NCBI RefSeq assembly: GCF_900199515.1
Contig: NZ_LT963434.1
Span: forward strand, 1,353,272 to 1,385,271
Length of the DNA stretch: 32,000 nucleotides
Direction: 5' to 3'
Source: Massilicoli timonensis
GTDB lineage: Bacteria; Bacillota_I; Bacilli_A; Erysipelotrichales; Erysipelotrichaceae
In this document: in pieces, positions 5,144 through 31,111 of the stretch
Numbering within the stretch: the first letter of the stretch is position 1
Layout of the letters: each line of letters starts with the position of its first letter
Notes under the pieces: generated by a model
What the model saw: only the letters and a program-made list of their open reading frames with translations
What the model was told of the DNA's origin: nothing
Databases searched by the model: none
Made by a program: the position numbers and the translations under genes

Positions 5144-5204
5144 AAAAAAACACCTCCATGATTGAGGCGTAGACAGTACGATCTTACTTTATCTGAAAAT
5201 AAGA

Positions 5205-5293
5205 TACAGGCTCCCTACGCTAGCATTAACTAGATCAGGTCATAAGGGACCGACTGTAAAACAGTACATCTCAGCAAAATGCGCCCCTGCCGA
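5205..5293 (-). promoter_or_regulatory. TPP (THI-box) riboswitch aptamer
   Basis: The minus strand reads CAGGGGCGC..GCTGAGA..(hairpin)..CCCTTATGACCTGATCTAGTTAATGCTAGCGTAGGGAGCCTG. This contains the invariant CUGAGA and ACCUGAUCUNGNUAAUNCNAGCGUAGGGA blocks. Confidence 0.9.
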
Positions 5294-5300
5294 CAGCTTT

Positions 5301-5983: not shown

Positions 5984-6040
5984 ACTATCACTCCCCGCTA
6001 GTCTATCCTATTAAGAAAGTGAAAGAACGTGCCTCTTTAT

Positions 6041-6078
6041 CAAAAAACGGAACCTCTCTAACAAGCTTCCGTTTTTTG
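6041..6078 (-). terminator. Rho-independent terminator after the MATE/83-aa operon
   Basis: Minus strand AACGGAAGC-ttgttagagag-GTTCCGTT followed by TTTTT; an A-run on the other side makes it look bidirectional. Confidence 0.65.
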
Positions 6079-6087
6079 CTTCATTGA

Positions 6088-6339
6088 TCATCCCTGTAAT
6101 CCTCTTGCTTGACGATCCATGTCCTCGATCACGATATCATAGATTTCTCCCAGCGTAGCACAATACGCAAGTACTAACCAAGGTGCATCGGTATGAAAGT
6201 GGATCTTGATCAATTCCTCATCACCGACGACCAAAAGACAATCGCCTTCAAAATGTTCTTGGAAATACGCGTGGATCGCATCTTCCGATAGATTGTTGCC
6301 CTCAATGAGCAGTTGGGTGTCATAACGATATGTAAGCAT
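6088..6339 (-). CDS. Small stand-alone protein resembling the central segment of FakA/YloV (DAK2-fusion) proteins
   Basis: 83 aa. GDCLLVVGDEELIKIHFHTDAPWLVLAYCATLGEIYDIVIEDM matches the remembered YloV pattern GDSLLVV.D..LVKVH.HT..PG.VL......G.L..IKI.NM. AAAGGAAG RBS 8 nt upstream. Located 24 nt after the MATE stop. Confidence 0.55.
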   Translation of the reverse strand: MLTYRYDTQLLIEGNNLSEDAIHAYFQEHFEGDCLLVVGDEELIKIHFHTDAPWLVLAYCATLGEIYDIVIEDMDRQARGLQG

Positions 6340-6363
6340 GATTTCGCTTCCTTTCTTTTTTTA

Positions 6364-7725
6364 TTATATCTGATTTTCGCTCTGCTTGCCAAACGCTTTC
6401 TTTCTTACCGCCATATAGCAAATGCCATGGGTCATGGCAGTTAAAAGCCATGAGATCGGATAGGAAATATAGAGAGAAAACAGCGTATGTTCCGCCTGAA
6501 AAATCGTAAAGATCCAGATAACGCGCAATAAACAGGCGCCGATCAGCGATACGATCATCGGCATGATCGAATATCCCAAGCCGCGGATACTGCCGACCAG
6601 TACATCCATCATACCGCAGAGGAAATAACTTGCGCATACGATGCTTAAACGACTTAGTCCTGCCGCTATTACCTGTGCATCGGAAGAATAAATGCCTAAC
6701 AAGAGATTGCCGCAAAGATAGGCGCCGCCACCAAGGGTGATGCCCACCACCGCAACCACACCGAGGCAGATCAGCAAAATACGATCGACCCGATGATATT
6801 GCTTTGCGCCCATGTTCTGGCTGGTAAAGCTAAGCGAGGTCTGATAGATCGCATTCATTGATGTATAGACAAAACCTTCGATATTGTTTGCGGAAGTATT
6901 ACCGGCCATTACGATCGATCCGAAGGAATTGACAGATGACTGGATCAAAACATTGGAAATGTTAAAGATCGTCCCTTGCAAGCCTGCCGGCAAACCGATC
7001 CTCATCATCTGCACGATCTTATCTCGGTGTGGACGCACTTTTTTCCATTCTAGTCGCAGCATTCCTTCCGATTGCTGCAAGCTCAATACGATCAATACCG
7101 CGGATATTGCCTGGGAAATGATGGTGGCGATCGCCACTCCCGCAACGCCCATATGAAAGACAATGACAAACAGCAGATTAAACAAGACATTGACGATCCC
7201 CGCTGCCAACAAAAAATAGAGGGGACGCTTCGTATCGCCGACAGAGCGTAAAGCCGCTGCACCGAAGTTATAGATCATAAATGCCGGCATACCGATAAAA
7301 TAAATGCGCATATATAGTACTGCCAGATCCAATACATTATCCGGTGTTCCCATCAGTTCCAACAAAGGACGCGCCAATAAGATCCCCACAAAGATCATGA
7401 CGATGCCCGAAACTGCCGCGGTAAAGATCGCACTGTGCAGCGTTTCTTCCACATTCTTGCGATCGTTTGCCCCATAATAGCGTCCGATCAGTACATTCGC
7501 ACCGACGGAAATACCGATAAATAAATTAACCAGCAAATTGATCAGCGAACTGGTGGAGCCTACCGCCGCCAGCGCATGACTGCCGCTGAAACGCCCGACC
7601 ACGATAATATCCGCCGCATTAAATAATAACTGCAAGATGCCCGACAAAATCAGCGGTATCGCAAAAAGGATGATCTGTCGAAACAGCGGTCCTTTGCACA
7701 TATTCATTTCATAAGATCGTTTCAT
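6364..7725 (-). CDS. MATE family efflux transporter
   Basis: 453 aa with ~12 hydrophobic segments. N-terminus GPLFRQIILFAIPLILSGILQLLFNAADIIVVGRF is typical of NorM/MATE. An extended -10 (TGcTATAAT) lies upstream at ~7760-7770. Confidence 0.85.
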   Translation of the reverse strand: MKRSYEMNMCKGPLFRQIILFAIPLILSGILQLLFNAADIIVVGRFSGSHALAAVGSTSSLINLLVNLFIGISVGANVLIGRYYGANDRKNVEETLHSAIFTAAVSGIVMIFVGILLARPLLELMGTPDNVLDLAVLYMRIYFIGMPAFMIYNFGAAALRSVGDTKRPLYFLLAAGIVNVLFNLLFVIVFHMGVAGVAIATIISQAISAVLIVLSLQQSEGMLRLEWKKVRPHRDKIVQMMRIGLPAGLQGTIFNISNVLIQSSVNSFGSIVMAGNTSANNIEGFVYTSMNAIYQTSLSFTSQNMGAKQYHRVDRILLICLGVVAVVGITLGGGAYLCGNLLLGIYSSDAQVIAAGLSRLSIVCASYFLCGMMDVLVGSIRGLGYSIMPMIVSLIGACLLRVIWIFTIFQAEHTLFSLYISYPISWLLTAMTHGICYMAVRKKAFGKQSENQI

Positions 7726-11619: not shown

Positions 11620-12660
11620 ATGAATAAGGCGACCGTAAAAGAATTATTGCAGTTTATCGACGATGTCGAAATTAACGGCATTTCTCTAGTTGCATTAAAG
11701 GATGCACTGATGAAGCAGACTCATTTTTCATATGAAACAAATGAGAAAGAACTCGAAGCTTTTTTTCACTTTTTGCTTCGACTTGATCTATTAAAGCAAA
11801 GCGCTGCCGGCATTGATCTGGTGCCCTGTGCTGCCGTTTTTGTACGCAGTCCGCATCATTCTTTATTAGAATCGCTTGCCTTGCTGGAACTGACCTTAAA
11901 AATTCCTTATTACCGGGAGTGCTTTTTTGCTCTTTGCGACGATAATGAACCGATGCCGCTTTATGAGATTCGACACTATCTCAAAGACGATCTGCTGTTT
12001 GATTTATTTTTAGATTCGTCCTTTTATGAACAGCTTGGTGATACTTATCGCATTCAGCCGAACTTGTTGGCTGATATACGTTTACAGATAAAGGAATATG
12101 AAGAACAGGAGGTCCTGCTCTCAACGATCCTTTGCGCACATTATGCCGATTATCTGATCTTTGCACGCAGCCATTCTCTTTCAATGAGAAACGAAGATCT
12201 GGAAATGATCGATTATCCTTTGCGATCGGAAATTTTACGGATCCTGCCGGTGAAAGGCATCCCTAAGGATCGTGAAGTTACCAGAGGCCTGCAGGCTTTT
12301 TACAAGGATACGTTATTCCATGAATTTGATCATCGCTGTCCGCTCTGTCATGCGGAAATCCCACATTTGTTAATTGCCAGTCATATTCGTCCGTTTCGTG
12401 ACTGTGCGCACATTTATGAAACGATTGATTATCAAAACGGGATCTTACTTTGTAAAAATCACGACTTCTTATTTGATCAGGGCTACTTCTCTTTTTTAGA
12501 AAACGGACAGATCATTTTCAGTGAAGCACTATTGAAACATGATCTTTCACATTATCAGCTAGATCCGGATTATCGTTTGCCGATTCGGTATCTGACCGAT
12601 GTCAGAAAGCAGTTTTTGGCCTATCATCTCAACCATATCTTTAATCATGAAAAGGAATGA
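11620..12660 (+). CDS. HNH endonuclease (HNH_2/PF13391-like C-terminal domain) with uncharacterised ~220-aa N-terminal region
   Basis: Residues ~220-300 (nt ~12277-12519) read TRGLQAFYKDTLFHEFDHRCPLCHAEIPHLLIASHIRPFRDC...YQNGILLCKNHDFLFDQGYFSF. This matches the R.GQ..FR...C..C....L.A.HI.P....NG.LL...H..FD.G pattern of restriction-type HNH nucleases. GGTGA RBS and a TGcgGTATAAT -10 lie upstream. Confidence 0.8.
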   Translation: MNKATVKELLQFIDDVEINGISLVALKDALMKQTHFSYETNEKELEAFFHFLLRLDLLKQSAAGIDLVPCAAVFVRSPHHSLLESLALLELTLKIPYYRECFFALCDDNEPMPLYEIRHYLKDDLLFDLFLDSSFYEQLGDTYRIQPNLLADIRLQIKEYEEQEVLLSTILCAHYADYLIFARSHSLSMRNEDLEMIDYPLRSEILRILPVKGIPKDREVTRGLQAFYKDTLFHEFDHRCPLCHAEIPHLLIASHIRPFRDCAHIYETIDYQNGILLCKNHDFLFDQGYFSFLENGQIIFSEALLKHDLSHYQLDPDYRLPIRYLTDVRKQFLAYHLNHIFNHEKE

Positions 12661-23143: not shown

Positions 23144-23701
23144 ATGAACTTCAATATTGAAAAAGAATATAAATGCTTAGTCAGTAAAGAGCAGTTTGAA
23201 ACTTTATTAAAATACTACCCCGGGGTGTCTTTCCAAACTCAGACCAACACCTATTTTGATACAGCGGATCTTGCGGTCAAGCAGTTAAAGGGCGCAATGC
23301 GGATTCGGGAAGTGAAACAGCAATTTCTGTTTACCTTAAAGCTTCCCGGTAAAGCAGGATTACAGGAATTTGAATGTTTTGTTCCTAATGATCAGATAAC
23401 GACGCTTGAAAATCATGAGGAGATTGTCGAGCTGTTGAGCAGTCATGGCATTCACGGTCCGTTTCAAATGCTGTGTCAGCTTACGACCAAGCGCGGGATC
23501 GTACATCTTCCAAATGCAGAGTTATGTTTTGACATCAATTATTACGGTGATCAGTGTGATTATGAAATTGAATATGAATGGACGAAAGCACACGATGGAT
23601 TGACGCAGTTCAACCAGATATTAGCACCGATCCACCTTTCCTATGAGAAAAACTGTGACTCTAAGATCAAACGGGCGATGGATGCATTATGCAAGGATTG
23701 A
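23144..23701 (+). CDS. CYTH domain protein (YjbK-like triphosphatase family)
   Basis: N-terminal EKEYK (ExExK) motif, 185 aa; divergent from nadK as in Bacillus. Confidence 0.75.
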   Translation: MNFNIEKEYKCLVSKEQFETLLKYYPGVSFQTQTNTYFDTADLAVKQLKGAMRIREVKQQFLFTLKLPGKAGLQEFECFVPNDQITTLENHEEIVELLSSHGIHGPFQMLCQLTTKRGIVHLPNAELCFDINYYGDQCDYEIEYEWTKAHDGLTQFNQILAPIHLSYEKNCDSKIKRAMDALCKD

Positions 23702-23958
23702 TCCTTTATTATCTCATTATAAACAGCATGGCTTTCTTGTTTATGGGACTTGATAAACAACATGCCCGCCATGGCAAATGGCGCTATCGTGAGTCTTCTT
23801 TGTTGGGATGTGCTGTTTGCGGCGGTGCGTTTGGTGCTTGGATCGGCATGTATTTATTTCATCATAAGACGAAGAAAAGGAAATTCACTTTCCTTCTTCC
23901 TTGTTTTATCCTGTTTCACTGTTTCCTGTTTTTCGTCTTATCTAAGGCTGTTTCATAA
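23689..23958 (+). CDS. DUF1294 membrane protein
   Basis: GLDKQHARHGKWRYRESSLLGCAVCGGAFGAWIGMYLFHHKTKKRKF is the DUF1294 signature. Confidence 0.8.
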   Translation: MQGLILYYLIINSMAFLFMGLDKQHARHGKWRYRESSLLGCAVCGGAFGAWIGMYLFHHKTKKRKFTFLLPCFILFHCFLFFVLSKAVS

Positions 23959-24871
23959 TAACCGTTTGGATCTTTAATGCTTCAAGGAACGATTGCAGTT
24001 CCTTTTTTAGTGGTTTCTCGCTGATAAAAAACAAAGTGTTCAAACGATCTGGAAAATTTTGATCGACTTCATGCAAGAGCCATAATGCCTGTGCAATCAT
24101 CGCCTTACAAAGATTGAGATCGTTTGGCAGAAGCGGCATACAAATATCGGTTTTATTTTTATGAAAATGAAGCAGACAGGTTTTACTGATCAGATCGCTT
24201 GTCCCTTCTATGTTTTTTTGATACATCCTTATCAGTTTTGCGGCGTTTTGCAATTCTTTTCCGGTATAGGTCAGCTCGTGTATTTTTTCCAGTGTTGAAG
24301 ATACGACGCTGCTATAAGCGTCATATTGAAAGCGCATGCTGTCTTTTTCATGATACATACTGCTCCATGCGTCAATGCCGATCTTTTCAGCTTCCGCCAA
24401 GATACGAGAAGTGATATTGGTATGGCTGCGATCTAAATAGATATAACTTTCTAACTGATTGGATATTTTGATACCGATGTCACTTAAATAGAGCGGTGAT
24501 TGGAAAAAGACGACCTGCTTTAATTCAAGACAGTTTAGAATTTCTGGCATTTTCTTTGTTTTACTGACTTTTACGATTGCTTCATATAGTGTTTTTTTGC
24601 TTGGATATCCATTTAGCGTTTTATACTTTCTCCACATCTGTTCAAATTTCATCTGTGTGGATTTATGATAAATACCGTATCCGACAATTCCTTTTTCTCT
24701 TTTTCTGCCTCTTTCTGTTCCTTTTGCCAAAAAGAATAGAAAATCTCCTTCATGAAAATCCGCAAATTTTTTGGTTGAAGAGGAAGGTCGCCAAAAATTG
24801 ATCTCGCTATTGCCGTTTAAGCGATGAAATTCAATCATTTGTTGATCGGTTACATAAGCGATCGATGCCAT
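23942..24871 (-). CDS. Hypothetical protein: N-terminal PUA-like/'HNH-nuclease-associated' sensor-type domain + unknown ~160-aa C-terminal domain
   Basis: 309 aa. Residues 1-~150 read AYVTDQQMIEFHRLNGNSEINFWRPSSSTKKFADFHEGDFLFFLAKG...KGIVGYGIY...MWRKY...NCLELKQVVFF. This matches my recollection of the N-terminal module of COG3440-like HNH endonucleases (VTD..W..F....EVNFW.PS....F..L..GE.F.FK....IVG.G.F). There are no HNH, PD-(D/E)xK, Walker or other catalytic motifs in the C-terminal half. TTGACA/TAAAAT promoter at ~24939-24965. Confidence 0.6.
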   Translation of the reverse strand: MASIAYVTDQQMIEFHRLNGNSEINFWRPSSSTKKFADFHEGDFLFFLAKGTERGRKREKGIVGYGIYHKSTQMKFEQMWRKYKTLNGYPSKKTLYEAIVKVSKTKKMPEILNCLELKQVVFFQSPLYLSDIGIKISNQLESYIYLDRSHTNITSRILAEAEKIGIDAWSSMYHEKDSMRFQYDAYSSVVSSTLEKIHELTYTGKELQNAAKLIRMYQKNIEGTSDLISKTCLLHFHKNKTDICMPLLPNDLNLCKAMIAQALWLLHEVDQNFPDRLNTLFFISEKPLKKELQSFLEALKIQTVIMKQP

Positions 24872-25003
24872 ATCATCACTTCCTTTCCATCTTTCCCTGT
24901 AAAGAAAACAAGGTGCTCTGTTTGTTCTTTCTATTTTTATTTTAGCACATCTATCACACTGTCAACAAACAAAAAAAGGCAATCAGCCTCTTTTTCCAAT
25001 TCA

Positions 25004-25597
25004 TCATAATTCTGTTCGATTTTCCAATGCTTTCAAAAGGGTCAATTCATCTGCATAGTCGATATGAGAACCGATCGGCAGACCATGTGCCAAACGGGTA
25101 ACTTTAAGCGGATATTCACTTAACAGTTTTCCAAGGTATAATGCCGTTGTTTCACCTTCAATGGTCGGATTCATTGCGATGATTACTTCTTTTACTTCTT
25201 GTTGCTTTACGCGTTCTACTAAAGAAGCGATATTGAGATCATCAGGCAGGATTCCTTTACTTGTATTGATCACACCATTTAGGACATGATACTGTCCTTG
25301 ATATTCGTTGATCTTTTCGATTGCGGCAATATCTCTTACCTCTTGCACAACACAGATTACATGCTGATCTCTTGTGTTGTCTTTGCATATTTCACAAAGC
25401 GTCTCTTCACTGATATTCCCACAACGCTCACACTGATGCAATTTTGTTTTCGTATTTTGAATGGCATCAACAAACTGTTTCCATGTTTCATCTTCCCAAT
25501 TCAGCACCTCGAAGGCATAGCGCTCAGCAGTCTTTGCCCCGACACCGGATAATTTACGAAAACTCTCGATCAGCAGTTCAAATTGCTTTGGATACAT
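25004..25597 (-). CDS. recR: Recombination protein RecR
   Basis: Helix-hairpin-helix (LSGVGAKTAERYAF), Cys4 zinc finger (CERCGN...CEIC) and a Toprim domain. Confidence 0.95.
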   Translation of the reverse strand: MYPKQFELLIESFRKLSGVGAKTAERYAFEVLNWEDETWKQFVDAIQNTKTKLHQCERCGNISEETLCEICKDNTRDQHVICVVQEVRDIAAIEKINEYQGQYHVLNGVINTSKGILPDDLNIASLVERVKQQEVKEVIIAMNPTIEGETTALYLGKLLSEYPLKVTRLAHGLPIGSHIDYADELTLLKALENRTEL

Positions 25598-25598
25598 A

Positions 25599-25907
25599 TC
25601 AGAATCCTCCCGGCAATTTCACTCCACCGGTCGCTTTTTTCATCACTTCGTTTTTATCGCTGACTGCCTTTCGCAGTACCGCATTGACTGCTGTTGTAAC
25701 AAGGTCTTGTATTTTTTCTTTATCGCCTTCTTGAATCAGCTCTTCTTTGATCGTCAGTGATTGGATCTGCATTGCGCCATTGCACACTACATTCACATCG
25801 CCTTGATTTACAGTTGCGGCATATTCTCTTGTTTCCAATTCTTTTTCGATTACTTCTAATTCTTTCTGCATTTTTTGTGCTTGCTTTAATAAACTTTGAA
25901 TATTCAT
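25599..25907 (-). CDS. ybaB: YbaB/EbfC family nucleoid-associated protein
   Basis: MNIQSLLKQAQKMQKELEVIEKEL...; located between dnaX and recR. Confidence 0.9.
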   Translation of the reverse strand: MNIQSLLKQAQKMQKELEVIEKELETREYAATVNQGDVNVVCNGAMQIQSLTIKEELIQEGDKEKIQDLVTTAVNAVLRKAVSDKNEVMKKATGGVKLPGGF

Positions 25908-25911
25908 TGAT

Positions 25912-27711
25912 TTATTCCTCCATTACAACGATATGATCTTTCCCAAACAATTCTTCCACCAGTTCTTGTTCTGTTTTCTCCTTAATCGTTTCTTCTTGAT
26001 CATTTTCCAACTCTTCAAAAGTGATGGGTTCCGGCAGAGCATTGGCAGCCATCGCCTGTTTGAATTGTGCGATTACACGTTTTTGCTGCTCTGTTGTAAT
26101 CGCGAATACCTTTTTGTTTTTCTCGAAAATTTTAGCGGTAAACTGTAAAAACTGATTGTTACTGTCTAATTCATTGATTTCATTTACGATTGGCTGATTT
26201 TCTACACAGATAATCAAATATTGCGCACCGCTTGCCGTAATCGTACAATCACTCAATAAATTGGCATATTTCCCCCATTCCATATCAAGCAAATATTCCG
26301 GAATTTTTTTCATATATTCCATATCTTTCATTTTTTCCGGTTTATTGGCACCAACAAGCAGCCGTACCACCAATTCATCCTTAAGTGGCTTTACTGATGG
26401 TTCTGCCTCTGCGGCAGTCTCCTCATGCTCTTGTTTCATTTCTTCTGTATTTATTTCTTCTACTAATGGAATATCTGTTATTGCTTCACTATCTTCTGTT
26501 TTATCTTCTTCTATTGTTTCTGTATTGATTGTTTCACGTGAAACATCTTCTTTCTTATTTTTTTGTGCAACGCTGATCGTTTTCTGTTCTTGATGTGAAT
26601 GATTTTTTATTGCCGGTATATTCTGCGATTGGTCTTTCTCAAAATACATACATTTCAATAACGCTACTTCAAAATAGGAAGCCACACTGGCCGCATTGCG
26701 ATATTTATCATAAGTTTCCAGTAAAACATCAATAATCTGTAAACGCACATCAGTTTGATACAACGAAATGATCTCATTAACCTCACTTTCATTCAGATAA
26801 TGAAGCAACGCCTGATCATTTGTATATTCGAAAATAATTGACTCTTTCAGTAATTCAACTAGATCCATTGTTAAACGCTTGATGTCTGTTCCTTTTTCAT
26901 TCATTCGATCCAGCGCATTCATCAAATCCGCAATCTTTTTTTCTTTTACCCATTTCAATAAATGCAGTTTATCTTGTGTTGTTGTAATTCCATAAATTTC
27001 ATTGATATGCGTTACTTTTATATCATTTTGTGCATATGCGATACATTGATCTAAAATACTCAGGGAATCACGCATACCGCCATCAGACAGCTGTGCGATC
27101 ATTCTGATCACTTCATCTTCGCATTTGATCTGTTCCTTTTCTAATATTCCCTGTAAATACGGAATCATTTCTTCAGGATTGACCCGGTTGAAATCGAAGC
27201 GTTGGCATCTTGATATAATCGTAGGCAGCACTTTCTGCGGTTCAGTTGTTGCCAAGATAAAAATGATATGTGCAGGCGGTTCTTCGATCGTTTTTAATAA
27301 TGCATTGAATGCACCTGCAGACATCATATGCACCTCATCTATGATATAAACTTTATATTTTCCTTCGATCGGTGCATACTTAACCTTTTCGATCAAATTT
27401 CTTACTTCTTCAACACCATTATTACTTGCGGCATCAATTTCAACGATATCCGGGTGTGTTCCCTCGGCAATCGCAATACAGTTCGGACACTTTCCGCACG
27501 GTTTCTCACCTTCGCCGGTACAATTTACTGCTTTCGCAAAAATTTTAGCGATCGAAGTTTTACCTGTACCTCTCGGCCCACAAAATAAATAAGCATGAGC
27601 GATCTTATTTTGTTCTACTGCATTTTTCAATGTTTTTACAATATGCTGCTGACCGGCAACTTCATTAAAATTTGACGGTCGATATGTTCGATATAATGCT
27701 TTATATCCCAT
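25912..27711 (-). CDS. dnaX: DNA polymerase III subunit tau (DnaX)
   Basis: YRPSNFNEVAGQQHIVKTLKNAV...FCGPRGTGKTS...CGKCPNC...IIDEVHMMS. Confidence 0.95.
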   Translation of the reverse strand: MGYKALYRTYRPSNFNEVAGQQHIVKTLKNAVEQNKIAHAYLFCGPRGTGKTSIAKIFAKAVNCTGEGEKPCGKCPNCIAIAEGTHPDIVEIDAASNNGVEEVRNLIEKVKYAPIEGKYKVYIIDEVHMMSAGAFNALLKTIEEPPAHIIFILATTEPQKVLPTIISRCQRFDFNRVNPEEMIPYLQGILEKEQIKCEDEVIRMIAQLSDGGMRDSLSILDQCIAYAQNDIKVTHINEIYGITTTQDKLHLLKWVKEKKIADLMNALDRMNEKGTDIKRLTMDLVELLKESIIFEYTNDQALLHYLNESEVNEIISLYQTDVRLQIIDVLLETYDKYRNAASVASYFEVALLKCMYFEKDQSQNIPAIKNHSHQEQKTISVAQKNKKEDVSRETINTETIEEDKTEDSEAITDIPLVEEINTEEMKQEHEETAAEAEPSVKPLKDELVVRLLVGANKPEKMKDMEYMKKIPEYLLDMEWGKYANLLSDCTITASGAQYLIICVENQPIVNEINELDSNNQFLQFTAKIFEKNKKVFAITTEQQKRVIAQFKQAMAANALPEPITFEELENDQEETIKEKTEQELVEELFGKDHIVVMEE

Positions 27712-27764: not shown

Positions 27765-28268
27765 CTAGACATTGTTTTTCTTAATCTCTGCAATTCCTTT
27801 ACGTTCTGCCTTTTTTATGCTGCGCTTATTTTTGAAAAAATCTCTTAGCATCTGTGCGCATTCTTCTTCCAAAATTCCTGCATGCGCATTTGGATAGTGA
27901 TTGAACCCTTTTACTTCATATAGATTCATACAACTATGCAGACACCCGCCTTTTGGATCATAAGCGCCATAATAAACATTTTTAATACGTGATTGTAAGA
28001 TGGCACCGGAACACATTGGGCATGGTTCTAATGTTACATATAAATCACAATCTTCTAATCGCCATGATCCAATCTTTTTACATGCTTTTTCAATCGCAAT
28101 CATCTCTGCATGCGCCGATGCACTTTGCCTAGATTCCCGTAAATTATGACCACGAGCAATGACTCTATCATCTTTTACGATCACACATCCAATCGGCACT
28201 TCATCTTTTTCCAGTGCTTTTATCGCTTCCTTTATCGCTAATTTCATATATTTTTCATGTCTATCCAT
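27765..28268 (-). CDS. tadA: tRNA adenosine(34) deaminase TadA
   Basis: HAEMIAIEKA...PCPMCSGA zinc-deaminase motifs. Start set at ATG 28268 (MDRHEKYMKLAIKEA) because the 20-codon extension in the ORF track overlaps the SRP RNA and its terminator. Confidence 0.9.
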   Translation of the reverse strand: MDRHEKYMKLAIKEAIKALEKDEVPIGCVIVKDDRVIARGHNLRESRQSASAHAEMIAIEKACKKIGSWRLEDCDLYVTLEPCPMCSGAILQSRIKNVYYGAYDPKGGCLHSCMNLYEVKGFNHYPNAHAGILEEECAQMLRDFFKNKRSIKKAERKGIAEIKKNNV

Positions 28269-28313
28269 ATGCCGCACCTGCCTAGTATATGTTTCACGTG
28301 AAACGTATAAATA

Positions 28314-28396
28314 AAAACTACTACACATAACAGAGGCACCTTATGGCTGCTTCGTTCCCGACCTGACCAGATTCAGTACATGCTATTGTAGTAGCT
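28314..28396 (-). ncRNA. ffs: Small (4.5S-type, ~80 nt) signal recognition particle RNA
   Basis: The minus strand contains CTGGTCAGGTCGGGAACGAAGCAGCCATAAGG, matching the universal domain IV sequence (E. coli: CAGGUCAGGUCCGGAAGGAAGCAGCCAAGG). The closing helix is CTACTACA...TGTAGTAG, followed by TTTTT. An extended -10 TGcTATAAT (28402-28410) lies ~7 nt upstream. Confidence 0.85.
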
Positions 28397-28719
28397 AGTA
28401 AATTATAGCATGTTTTACCGTATTACACAATATAAATCCTTTATTTAACCGTATAACATATAAAATCAAATCCTTTGCATTATCACTTTACCGTAAGTAA
28501 GCATATTCTCCCCTTCAATTTATCCTTTTTATAGCCATAAAAAAGAAGAATCATCACTGCACAATAATTCAGTATGATCTGTTCCCTAACTATTGTATCA
28601 ACATGATTATATTTAATTTGATTATCAAAATATAAATATATCCGATCCTCTCAGTAACGACTCTTCTTGTTTATGAAATCTATGTTATACTATTAACAAA
28701 ACATGGAAGGAGAATTTTT

Positions 28720-30839: not shown

Positions 30840-31040
30840 AAATAAAAAAGGCATGTCCATAAAGGGACGATACCTCGTGTTGCCACCCTTCTTAAATATA
30901 GAATTTACGCAACATTCTATATTTCACTCGACAGCGATAACGGTACCACCGAAGCAGAATACTGAAATTCCTCTGCTCACTCATGGGTTGATTTCAAGAA
31001 TGATCATAAATGACTTGCACCAGCCGTCATCTCTCTGCTT
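30840..31040 (-). promoter_or_regulatory. T-box leader (tRNA-Ser-responsive) with terminator/antiterminator
   Basis: Read on the minus strand: AGAGAG bulge, GGTGCAAG distal loop, specifier region GAAATCAACCC, GAGTGA, F-box CCGTTA, T-box AAGGGTGGCAACACGAGG. The terminator is AGGTATcGTCC-ctttat-GGACATGCCT followed by TTTTTT. Confidence 0.85.
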
Positions 31041-31111
31041 ATAATTACATTCTTTACTTATCCCATTCAACGATTTATGTGTATTTTATATCATTGTTTC
31101 CATGAAAAGTC

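Follow-up and report, generated by a model that had tools for sequence, protein, structure and literature searches.

A PUA-like module shared with McrA-type HNH endonucleases in a recR-linked protein family of Erysipelotrichaceae

Beside recR in Massilicoli timonensis lies a gene for a 309-amino-acid protein (positions 23942-24871, minus strand, of a 32,000-nucleotide stretch of contig NZ_LT963434.1). This whole stretch is called the window, and coordinates are window positions unless a locus is named. The N-terminal half of the protein is homologous to a module found at the N-terminus of McrA-type HNH endonucleases, the C-terminal half most resembles a PD-(D/E)XK nuclease fold without catalytic residues, and the gene is inherited vertically at a fixed chromosomal site. 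We tentatively propose that the protein is a domesticated, non-cleaving reader of modification or damage in nucleic acid, probably DNA, and that a part of a defence system has perhaps been repurposed for housekeeping; we would put this at a little under an even chance. An earlier description made from the letters alone, here termed the sequence-only reading, had seen a restriction-type DNA-sensor domain that lacks its nuclease and was inserted among housekeeping genes. Its observation was partly confirmed, and its interpretation is partly supported.

Conservation and chromosomal position of the family

Judged by its sequence relatives, the studied protein represents an uncharacterised two-domain family specific to Erysipelotrichaceae. 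A database search recovered 295 homologs, nearly all of 300-325 amino acids and all named 'hypothetical', from members of this group such as Amedibacillus dolichus, Anaerorhabdus, Longicatena and Holdemania, and an exhaustive profile search returned 104 clusters (50% identity) with E<1e-30. Scans of the protein against Pfam, NCBIfam and PADLOC gave nothing significant, a Pfam scan at E<=1 of all 39 members of the family alignment found no recurrent family, and searches of PDB sequences with the profiles of the family and of its N-terminal module returned only noise.

Conservation is concentrated in the first part of the protein. Among the 39 homologs (38-46% identity) there are 39 invariant columns, all of them within residues 1-169; they include Y6, T8, D9, H16, R17, F26, W27, P29, G42, F46, F47, K50, E59 and K60, followed by G61, G64, G66, W80, G88, F123, Q124, P126, E141, S142, Y145, G165, D167 and W169. 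The N-terminal pattern on which the sequence-only reading was built is therefore present and strongly conserved. Across 77 more diverse representatives most of the invariant residues are still conserved in at least 80%, and past residue 169 the sole conserved position is G260 (91%). Mean pairwise identity over 59 species is 0.585 for the N-terminal domain, 0.616 for the adjacent RecR and 0.206 for the C-terminal domain. On this basis, and on the structural and profile comparisons described below, the protein was divided into an N-terminal conserved region (residues 1-170; 24362-24871, minus strand), which holds all the invariant columns, and a C-terminal divergent domain (residues 171-309; 23945-24361, minus strand), defined from AlphaFold2 (AF2) models and Foldseek matches. 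Within the conserved region, the reader module covers approximately residues 5-148 and is followed by a family-specific extension up to G165-x-D167-x-W169.

For the synteny survey one genome per GTDB species was scanned, and 80 loci were inspected. Relatives were found in 131 species-level genomes, nearly all of them labelled Erysipelotrichaceae or Erysipelotrichales. At about 65 of the 80 loci recR lies upstream on the same strand, either directly or with the gene for formate-tetrahydrofolate ligase (FTHFS, fhs) in between; most of the loci outside this number are truncated contigs. Downstream of the relative, most of the 80 loci carry CYTH(-)/nadK(+). The order in A. dolichus (41% identity) is tadA-dnaX-ybaB-recR-[gene]-CYTH(convergent)-nadK. 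FTHFS stands between recR and the gene, often 8-30 nt upstream of the latter, in Anaerorhabdus, in a closed 1.2-Mb contig from a metagenome-assembled genome and in about 47 of the 80 surveyed loci, and is missing from this place in the window's lineage. Of the 69 loci in which an upstream recR or FTHFS could be placed, 60 have a gap of 3-102 nt (mostly 8-93) to the upstream gene, which is consistent with membership of an operon in many genomes. Several metagenome assemblies from the human gut show the same arrangement as the window. DUF1294, which in the window lies between the studied gene and CYTH, does so in just 5 further loci of the 80, and it is thus DUF1294, not the studied gene, that forms the variable element of the junction.

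In pairwise comparisons the gene and the adjacent RecR diverge in parallel (Spearman 0.47, Mantel p 0.001). For dnaX the correlation with RecR reached only 0.19, a value probably due to truncation of dnaX by the 4-kb flank, and this marker was not relied on. The GC content of the gene is 0.371, approximately 3 points under recR (0.402), DUF1294 (0.400) and CYTH (0.409) and on par with dnaX (0.367), tadA (0.372) and alkD (0.359), and in codon usage its log-likelihood of -0.999 falls near the centre of the values seen in the window (-0.91 to -1.10). The gene is therefore compositionally native and carries no anomaly that would mark a foreign origin: the impression that it is richer in AT than its neighbours is correct for the three closest genes, and it does not extend to the block as a whole. 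No match to the family was obtained by tblastn against 50,697 phage records and 72,556 plasmids, and scanning IMG/VR with the family profile returned no relative. The gene also lies outside any defence island and has no PADLOC match.

Because of the recR-linked synteny, the co-divergence with RecR, the native composition and the absence from collections of mobile elements, the studied gene is not a recent insertion; it is part of the conserved synteny and is inherited vertically at a fixed site. The sequence-only reading had placed it as an intruder in that synteny, and had itself stated that a core gene occupying this position throughout the lineage would speak against this. The 131 species genomes and approximately 65 of 80 loci largely describe such a gene.

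Relatives of the module and the fold of both halves

Outside the family, matches in the exhaustive profile search cover only profile positions ~7-141, with library-wide E values of 1e-19 to 1e-10. Nine of the ten such relatives examined carry a C-terminal HNH domain (PF01844) of the McrA type (E. coli McrA 6ghc, E 1e-24; PADLOC mREase_IV, a Type IV methyl-directed restriction enzyme). Aligned with a profile of the HNH-fused and standalone modules, the family profile gave an hhalign probability of 99.8% and an E value of 5e-30 over 134 columns, which bears out the assignment, made in the sequence-only reading, to the N-terminal module of HNH endonucleases. Common to the family and the HNH relatives are the motifs VTD/S, NFW[RC], G[DE].FFFL.K, E[KR]..G.G, AW..Y...NG, C..L and P..LS, while a family-specific ESYIY stands where the relatives have IVSGK. 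The module-HNH proteins, named 'HNH endonuclease' or 'putative restriction endonuclease', thus share an N-terminal module of ~140 amino acids with the studied protein, and are found on plasmids, in variable regions or beside restriction-modification (R-M) genes. The studied protein differs from them in having no HNH domain, in its own motifs FHRLNG, FFQ.P, ESY.Y and G.D.W, and in its fixed chromosomal position.

Examples of these relatives are the plasmid-borne HNH endonucleases WP_124875929.1 (Deinococcus) and WP_006205527.1 (Mesorhizobium), which were matched with a probability of 96% and E values of 2.5e-9 and 4.6e-9, respectively. Their sequences follow the pattern written out in the sequence-only reading almost letter for letter, and the Mesorhizobium gene adjoins a Type ISP R-M enzyme. 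The metagenomic protein P0264 (869 amino acids) joins the module with an AAA_5/McrB-like NTPase, matched in PADLOC by the candidate PDC-M26A, and this fusion suggests that the module can replace the usual DNA-reader domain at the N-terminus of McrB.

Several relatives are standalone proteins of approximately 150 amino acids (~154-155 in BREX operons). Standalone forms of ~154 amino acids from Stomatobaculum longum and gut Lachnospiraceae have BrxC/PglY on one side and an N6_N4 methyltransferase on the other, with an SNF2 helicase and PglZ coming after the methyltransferase (loci L092-L096, at ~6001-6465 in each). The order BrxC/PglY-methyltransferase-helicase-PglZ is the Type-3 BREX layout in a BREX survey (PMC12839542), which in the parts compared here does not list the standalone module as a core BREX component. 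The neighbours of the studied gene, by contrast with those of the BREX-embedded modules, are recR, DUF1294, CYTH and nadK.

Clostridia encode module-HNH proteins of ~275 amino acids, for example P0274 and P0252. One fusion of this length bears the source name 'putative restriction endonuclease [Caudoviricetes sp.]'; the variable region around it also holds HTH/RHH genes and an RdRP-family gene. For P0274 no viral relatives were found, the phage collection matching its HNH part only, and the contigs of P0252 and P0247 were too short for an informative gene context. As a separate observation, a 1038-amino-acid RdRP protein (PF05183) is encoded directly downstream of the P0274 gene (7362-10478 in loci L089-L091), flanked by small RHH/antitoxin-like genes within a variable region of Clostridia-like contigs.

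From the architectures in which it occurs, the module is to be read as a defence-associated, non-catalytic domain of the sensor type that has no Pfam model. Neither the family nor the module matched a Pfam or NCBIfam model, and no PADLOC model covers the module itself. The literature searched held no description of it, in a comparison that did not take in the separate PUA-like clade of ScoA3V.

An AF2 model of the studied protein, built with the family alignment, reached a pLDDT of 85 and a pTM of 0.80. When residues ~1-150 were compared with the PDB by Foldseek, ASCH proteins ranked at the top (probability 0.96-1.0), among them AF2351 (2kku, TMt 0.67) and the Zymomonas protein ZmASCH (5y6c/5gus, TMt 0.51-0.61), with E values of 2.5e-3 to 3e-2 and 11-13% identity. 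The PUA-like N-terminal domain of Staphylothermus McrB was also among the matches. By its modelled fold, the N-terminal module is thus an ASCH-like member of the PUA superfamily, and the PUA-like character proposed for it from the sequence is upheld. At the level of sequence the picture is different. Pfam searches at E<=1 found no ASCH, EVE, YTH, PUA or SRA model in the studied protein or the 39 members, and the ASCH signature GxKxx(E/T)xR, which lies near the N-terminus of ASCH proteins, is absent from the studied protein and from all of 120 family members searched by regular expression (0/120). The module is therefore not a sequence member of ASCH (PF04266). ASCH proteins (AF2351, ZmASCH and the YqfB-type amidohydrolases) provide the best fold match to this half, but are usually single-domain and RNA-directed, whereas the studied protein has two domains.

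The C-terminal ~140-160 residues had no match in Pfam, NCBIfam, PADLOC or PDB sequences. Pfam matches to HNH or to any other nuclease were absent from the studied protein, and none of the 39 family members has an HNH domain; that HNH has been replaced by another domain, as the sequence-only reading held, was thus borne out. In the AF2 model this half folds as alpha-alpha-beta-beta-beta-alpha-beta-alpha-beta, an order that fits the alpha-beta-beta-beta-alpha-beta core of PD-(D/E)XK enzymes; modelled on their own, residues 146-309 reached a pLDDT of 84.9. With both the full-length protein and residues 146-309 as queries, the C-terminal half matched PD-(D/E)XK-fold proteins first, namely XisH (2inb, 2okf) and the nuclease domain of EndoMS/NucS (5gkj, 2vld, 5gke; probability 0.96-0.97), with further matches to Cdn1, AF1548, Card1, a splicing endonuclease, Nt.BspD6I, arenavirus cap-snatching endonucleases and MspJI. 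This resemblance argues against the 'novel effector' suggested for this half from the sequence alone.

Whatever the fold, the catalytic constellation is missing. D, E and K are nowhere conserved in residues 170-309 of the 77 representatives, there is no column-consistent [DE]xK, and no subset of the family retains an intact PD-(D/E)XK motif. At the start of predicted beta-2, D or E is present in just 39% of the representatives, and the studied protein has Cys232 there; beta-3 is purely hydrophobic. In the absence of any conserved acidic residue or lysine, the C-terminal domain is probably a degenerate nuclease fold.

Type IV restriction enzymes that join a PUA-superfamily reader to a nuclease include VcaM4I and TspA15I (EVE-HNH), ScoA3IV and TagI (SRA-HNH), YenY4I (EVE-DUF3427-PD-(D/E)XK) and MspJI (SRA-like with PD-(D/E)XK), as described in PMC6765204 and PMC7897488. 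Like these enzymes, the studied protein has an N-terminal PUA-like reader, which is followed by a C-terminal domain of probable nuclease-type fold. Unlike them, it has no sequence similarity to EVE or SRA in Pfam and PDB sequence searches, it has no catalytic residues, and it is inherited vertically within housekeeping synteny. Because it lacks a competent nuclease and its distribution is neither mobile nor sporadic, the protein should not be classed with the Type IV restriction enzymes, and is best described as a variant of the Type IV PUA-nuclease architecture: a reader joined to a probable degenerate nuclease fold and encoded by a lineage-core gene.

Two further comparisons concern the C-terminal half. 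EndoMS/NucS, the mismatch endonuclease, is also a two-domain protein, acting in DNA repair, and its C-terminal PD-(D/E)XK domain is one of the best matches. The N-terminal domain of NucS has a different, PH-like fold, and its nuclease motif is intact, whereas the TM score to the studied C-terminal domain is just ~0.41 and the studied protein lacks catalytic residues. Inactive restriction endonuclease (iREase) domains serve as scaffolds in RapA and in the BREX helicase BrxHII, according to PMC12839542. What they have in common with the proposed role of the C-terminal half is the idea of a PD-(D/E)XK-type fold kept without catalysis; the likeness is one of concept, with no homology demonstrated, and the protein context is another.

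A candidate reader function and its alternatives

In the model proposed here, the fold related to restriction endonucleases (REase-like) would have lost, or never had, the catalytic residues of PD-(D/E)XK enzymes. The N-terminal module would bind DNA, and a pocket made of W27, F46/F47, W80, E59-K/R60 and S142 could accept a flipped modified or damaged base, a mode of readout used by EVE, SRA and YTH readers; the predicted pocket residues are those common to the HNH-fused relatives. The basic hairpin loop K50-K60, which has low confidence in the structural model, may contact the DNA backbone. The dead nuclease-like C-terminal domain would act as a non-catalytic scaffold for dimerisation or DNA clamping, not as an effector. 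Expressed with, or next to, the replication and recombination genes dnaX-ybaB-recR, the protein would mark or sense the state of DNA without cutting it. The direction of change, from defence to housekeeping, is the one we infer, and domestication is an attractive reading of what is comparative evidence throughout.

Several points weigh against this model. DNA rather than RNA is suggested as the ligand solely by the partners of homologous modules, and the nearest structural relatives, the ASCH proteins, include the ribonuclease ZmASCH and amidohydrolases acting on N4-acetylcytidine (ac4C). The invariant polar residues H16, R17, Q124, E141, Y145 and D167 are missing from the HNH-fused relatives, and such extra, family-specific invariant polar residues could make up a catalytic site in place of a reader pocket. 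In the C-terminal half the Foldseek matches have probabilities of 0.8-0.99, but E values of at least 1e-2 and TM scores of 0.31-0.42, so that the assignment to the PD-(D/E)XK fold is probable and not established. With regard to the chromosomal position, the counts cover carrier genomes only, the synteny with recR may just reflect slow rearrangement in the family, and in the window a hairpin and a promoter-like element part the gene from recR.

The same features could belong to a working Type IV-like defence sensor that became fixed in the lineage, with an unconventional active site in the C-terminal domain or an effector encoded elsewhere. All detectable relatives of the module do stand in defence-type settings (HNH fusions, a McrB-like NTPase, BREX operons and a position beside a Type ISP R-M enzyme), and the layout of a reader followed by a REase-like domain mimics the PUA/SRA-nuclease enzymes of Type IV, with MspJI among the full-length fold matches. 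Fusions of DUF3427 to PD-(D/E)XK restrict phage despite little nuclease activity in vitro, as stated in PMC6765204. We nevertheless consider this account unlikely. Family-wide, no catalytic residues are conserved, and a conserved sensor joined to a fast-drifting 'effector' is the reverse of the usual pattern in defence proteins. The position is fixed and co-diverges with RecR across genera; there is no defence island, no PADLOC match and no occurrence in the mobile-element collections. The HNH_2 gene of the window, described below, is unrelated, 11 kb off and among metabolic genes.

Alternatively, the protein could be an ASCH-like enzyme that performs hydrolysis on RNA or a modified nucleoside, either YqfB-type deacetylation of N4-acetylcytidine or ZmASCH-type cleavage of single-stranded RNA, with the C-terminal domain aiding substrate binding. 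The top structural matches are indeed ASCH proteins, including the ribonuclease ZmASCH (PMC5615036), and ASCH proteins are reported as tRNA ac4C erasers in bioRxiv 10.64898/2026.02.27.708502. The N-terminal domain is unusually conserved, its invariant polar residues H16, R17, E59, K60, Q124, E141, S142, Y145 and D167 being in some cases family-specific, and the tRNA-modifying tadA belongs to the same conserved block. What makes an enzyme of this kind improbable is that Pfam ASCH is unmatched and the GxKxx[E/T]xR signature was found in none of the 120 members, that the relatives detectable by sequence are all DNA-directed defence architectures, and that the Foldseek matches themselves reach just 2.5e-3 to 3e-2 at 11-13% identity.

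A more far-reaching form of the domestication model has a slimmer chance still. A modified-base reader of the restriction or BREX type would have been exapted as a core chromosome-maintenance factor of Erysipelotrichaceae, operonic with dnaX-ybaB-recR, where it would read the methylation or damage state of DNA and feed this into replication, recombination or nucleoid organisation. Such a reader might, for instance, recognise hemi-modified DNA behind the fork much as SeqA or MutH do, although it would not cut. In the weakest alternative, a defence gene with a novel effector domain would have been acquired recently and come to lie between recR and DUF1294. Such an event would account for the promoter-like element and terminator-like hairpin after recR and for a GC content slightly below that of the three immediate neighbours, but it is highly improbable given that the same gene sits in the same place in genera sharing just 40-50% identity, that it co-diverges with RecR, that its GC and codon usage fall within the range of dnaX, tadA and alkD, and that the variable neighbour is DUF1294 (5 of 80 loci and the window).

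If the domestication model is true, the family would be a documented case in which the sensor module of a defence system became a vertically inherited housekeeping gene, its nuclease partner swapped for a dead fold. It would then bear on the domestication of immune modules or, conversely, on their recruitment from housekeeping proteins. The comparisons also define a PUA-like reader module without a library model that recurs in McrA-type HNH enzymes, a McrB-like NTPase and Type-3 BREX operons, and flag a conserved unknown gene beside core replication and recombination genes in Erysipelotrichaceae, which are common gut bacteria.

Signals around the gene and other features of the window

The open reading frame (ORF) list places the gene, with an ATG start and 309 codons plus stop, between DUF1294 (23689-23958, plus strand; Pfam E 7e-24) and recR (25004-25597, minus strand; Toprim_4/RecR domains in Pfam), where the sequence-only reading had put it. 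The 3' ends of the gene and DUF1294 are convergent and share exactly 17 nt, again as read from the letters, and CYTH shares 13 nt with the start of DUF1294. Upstream and co-directional lies the dnaX-ybaB-recR block (25004-27711, minus strand; Pfam). The N-terminus of the studied protein, MASIAYVTD, is the same as in its homologs in the alignment, and a Shine-Dalgarno-like AAGGAAG was read 7 nt 5' of the ATG (24879-24885, minus strand).

The 132-nt spacer between recR and the gene contains a hairpin, a TTGACA and a TAAAAT. Directly after the recR stop codon, the scan found a terminator-like hairpin with a T-run (24971-24995, minus strand; RNAfold dG -11.4 kcal/mol), which makes a separate transcription unit plausible in this genome. 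The promoter-like element (24939-24965, minus strand), located by sequence reading and regular expression, consists of TTGACA (24965-24960), a 15-nt spacer and TGC-TAAAAT (24944-24939), and its -10 hexamer ends 67 nt upstream of the ATG. As TGC precedes TAAAAT, the element resembles an extended -10, with non-canonical spacing of the hexamers. The promoter that the sequence-only reading had assigned to the gene is thus real as a pair of hexamers, but the automated consensus scan did not call the pair, because the spacer is only 15 nt. A second terminator-like hairpin (23984-24004, plus strand; scan, RNAfold dG -9.0 kcal/mol) falls within the 3' part of the studied gene's coding sequence and probably ends the convergent CYTH-DUF1294 transcript. 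For the studied gene itself the scan of the window found no terminator, and its transcript would therefore run antisense into DUF1294.

An HNH gene of the window, at 11620-12660 (plus strand), encodes 346 amino acids with HNH_2 at residues 240-292. This domain is like the nuclease domain of the EVE-HNH enzyme VcaM4I (6yex, E 4e-12) and also matches HNH/REase models of PADLOC. The sequence-only reading had described the protein as reader-less and had raised a link in trans with the studied gene. It has, however, an uncharacterised N-terminal region of its own, of ~220 amino acids ahead of HNH_2, it shows no similarity to the studied protein (hhalign probability 0.2%), and its neighbours are metabolic, namely chromate-transporter, nitroreductase and FMN-reductase genes. 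On these grounds, and with 11 kb between the two genes, the functional link was rejected. The protein may itself represent a Type IV-like enzyme, although it lies outside a defence island.

The remaining observations concern RNA elements. The signal recognition particle (SRP) RNA (28305-28402, minus strand; Rfam, 67 bits) covers the first ~24 nt of the mechanically called tadA ORF (27765-28328). Since tadA is called with 167 amino acids elsewhere, and given this overlap, its true start is probably a downstream ATG. A T-box leader upstream of serS and a thiamine pyrophosphate (TPP) riboswitch, at 30860-31079 and 5195-5298 (both minus strand), are ordinary.

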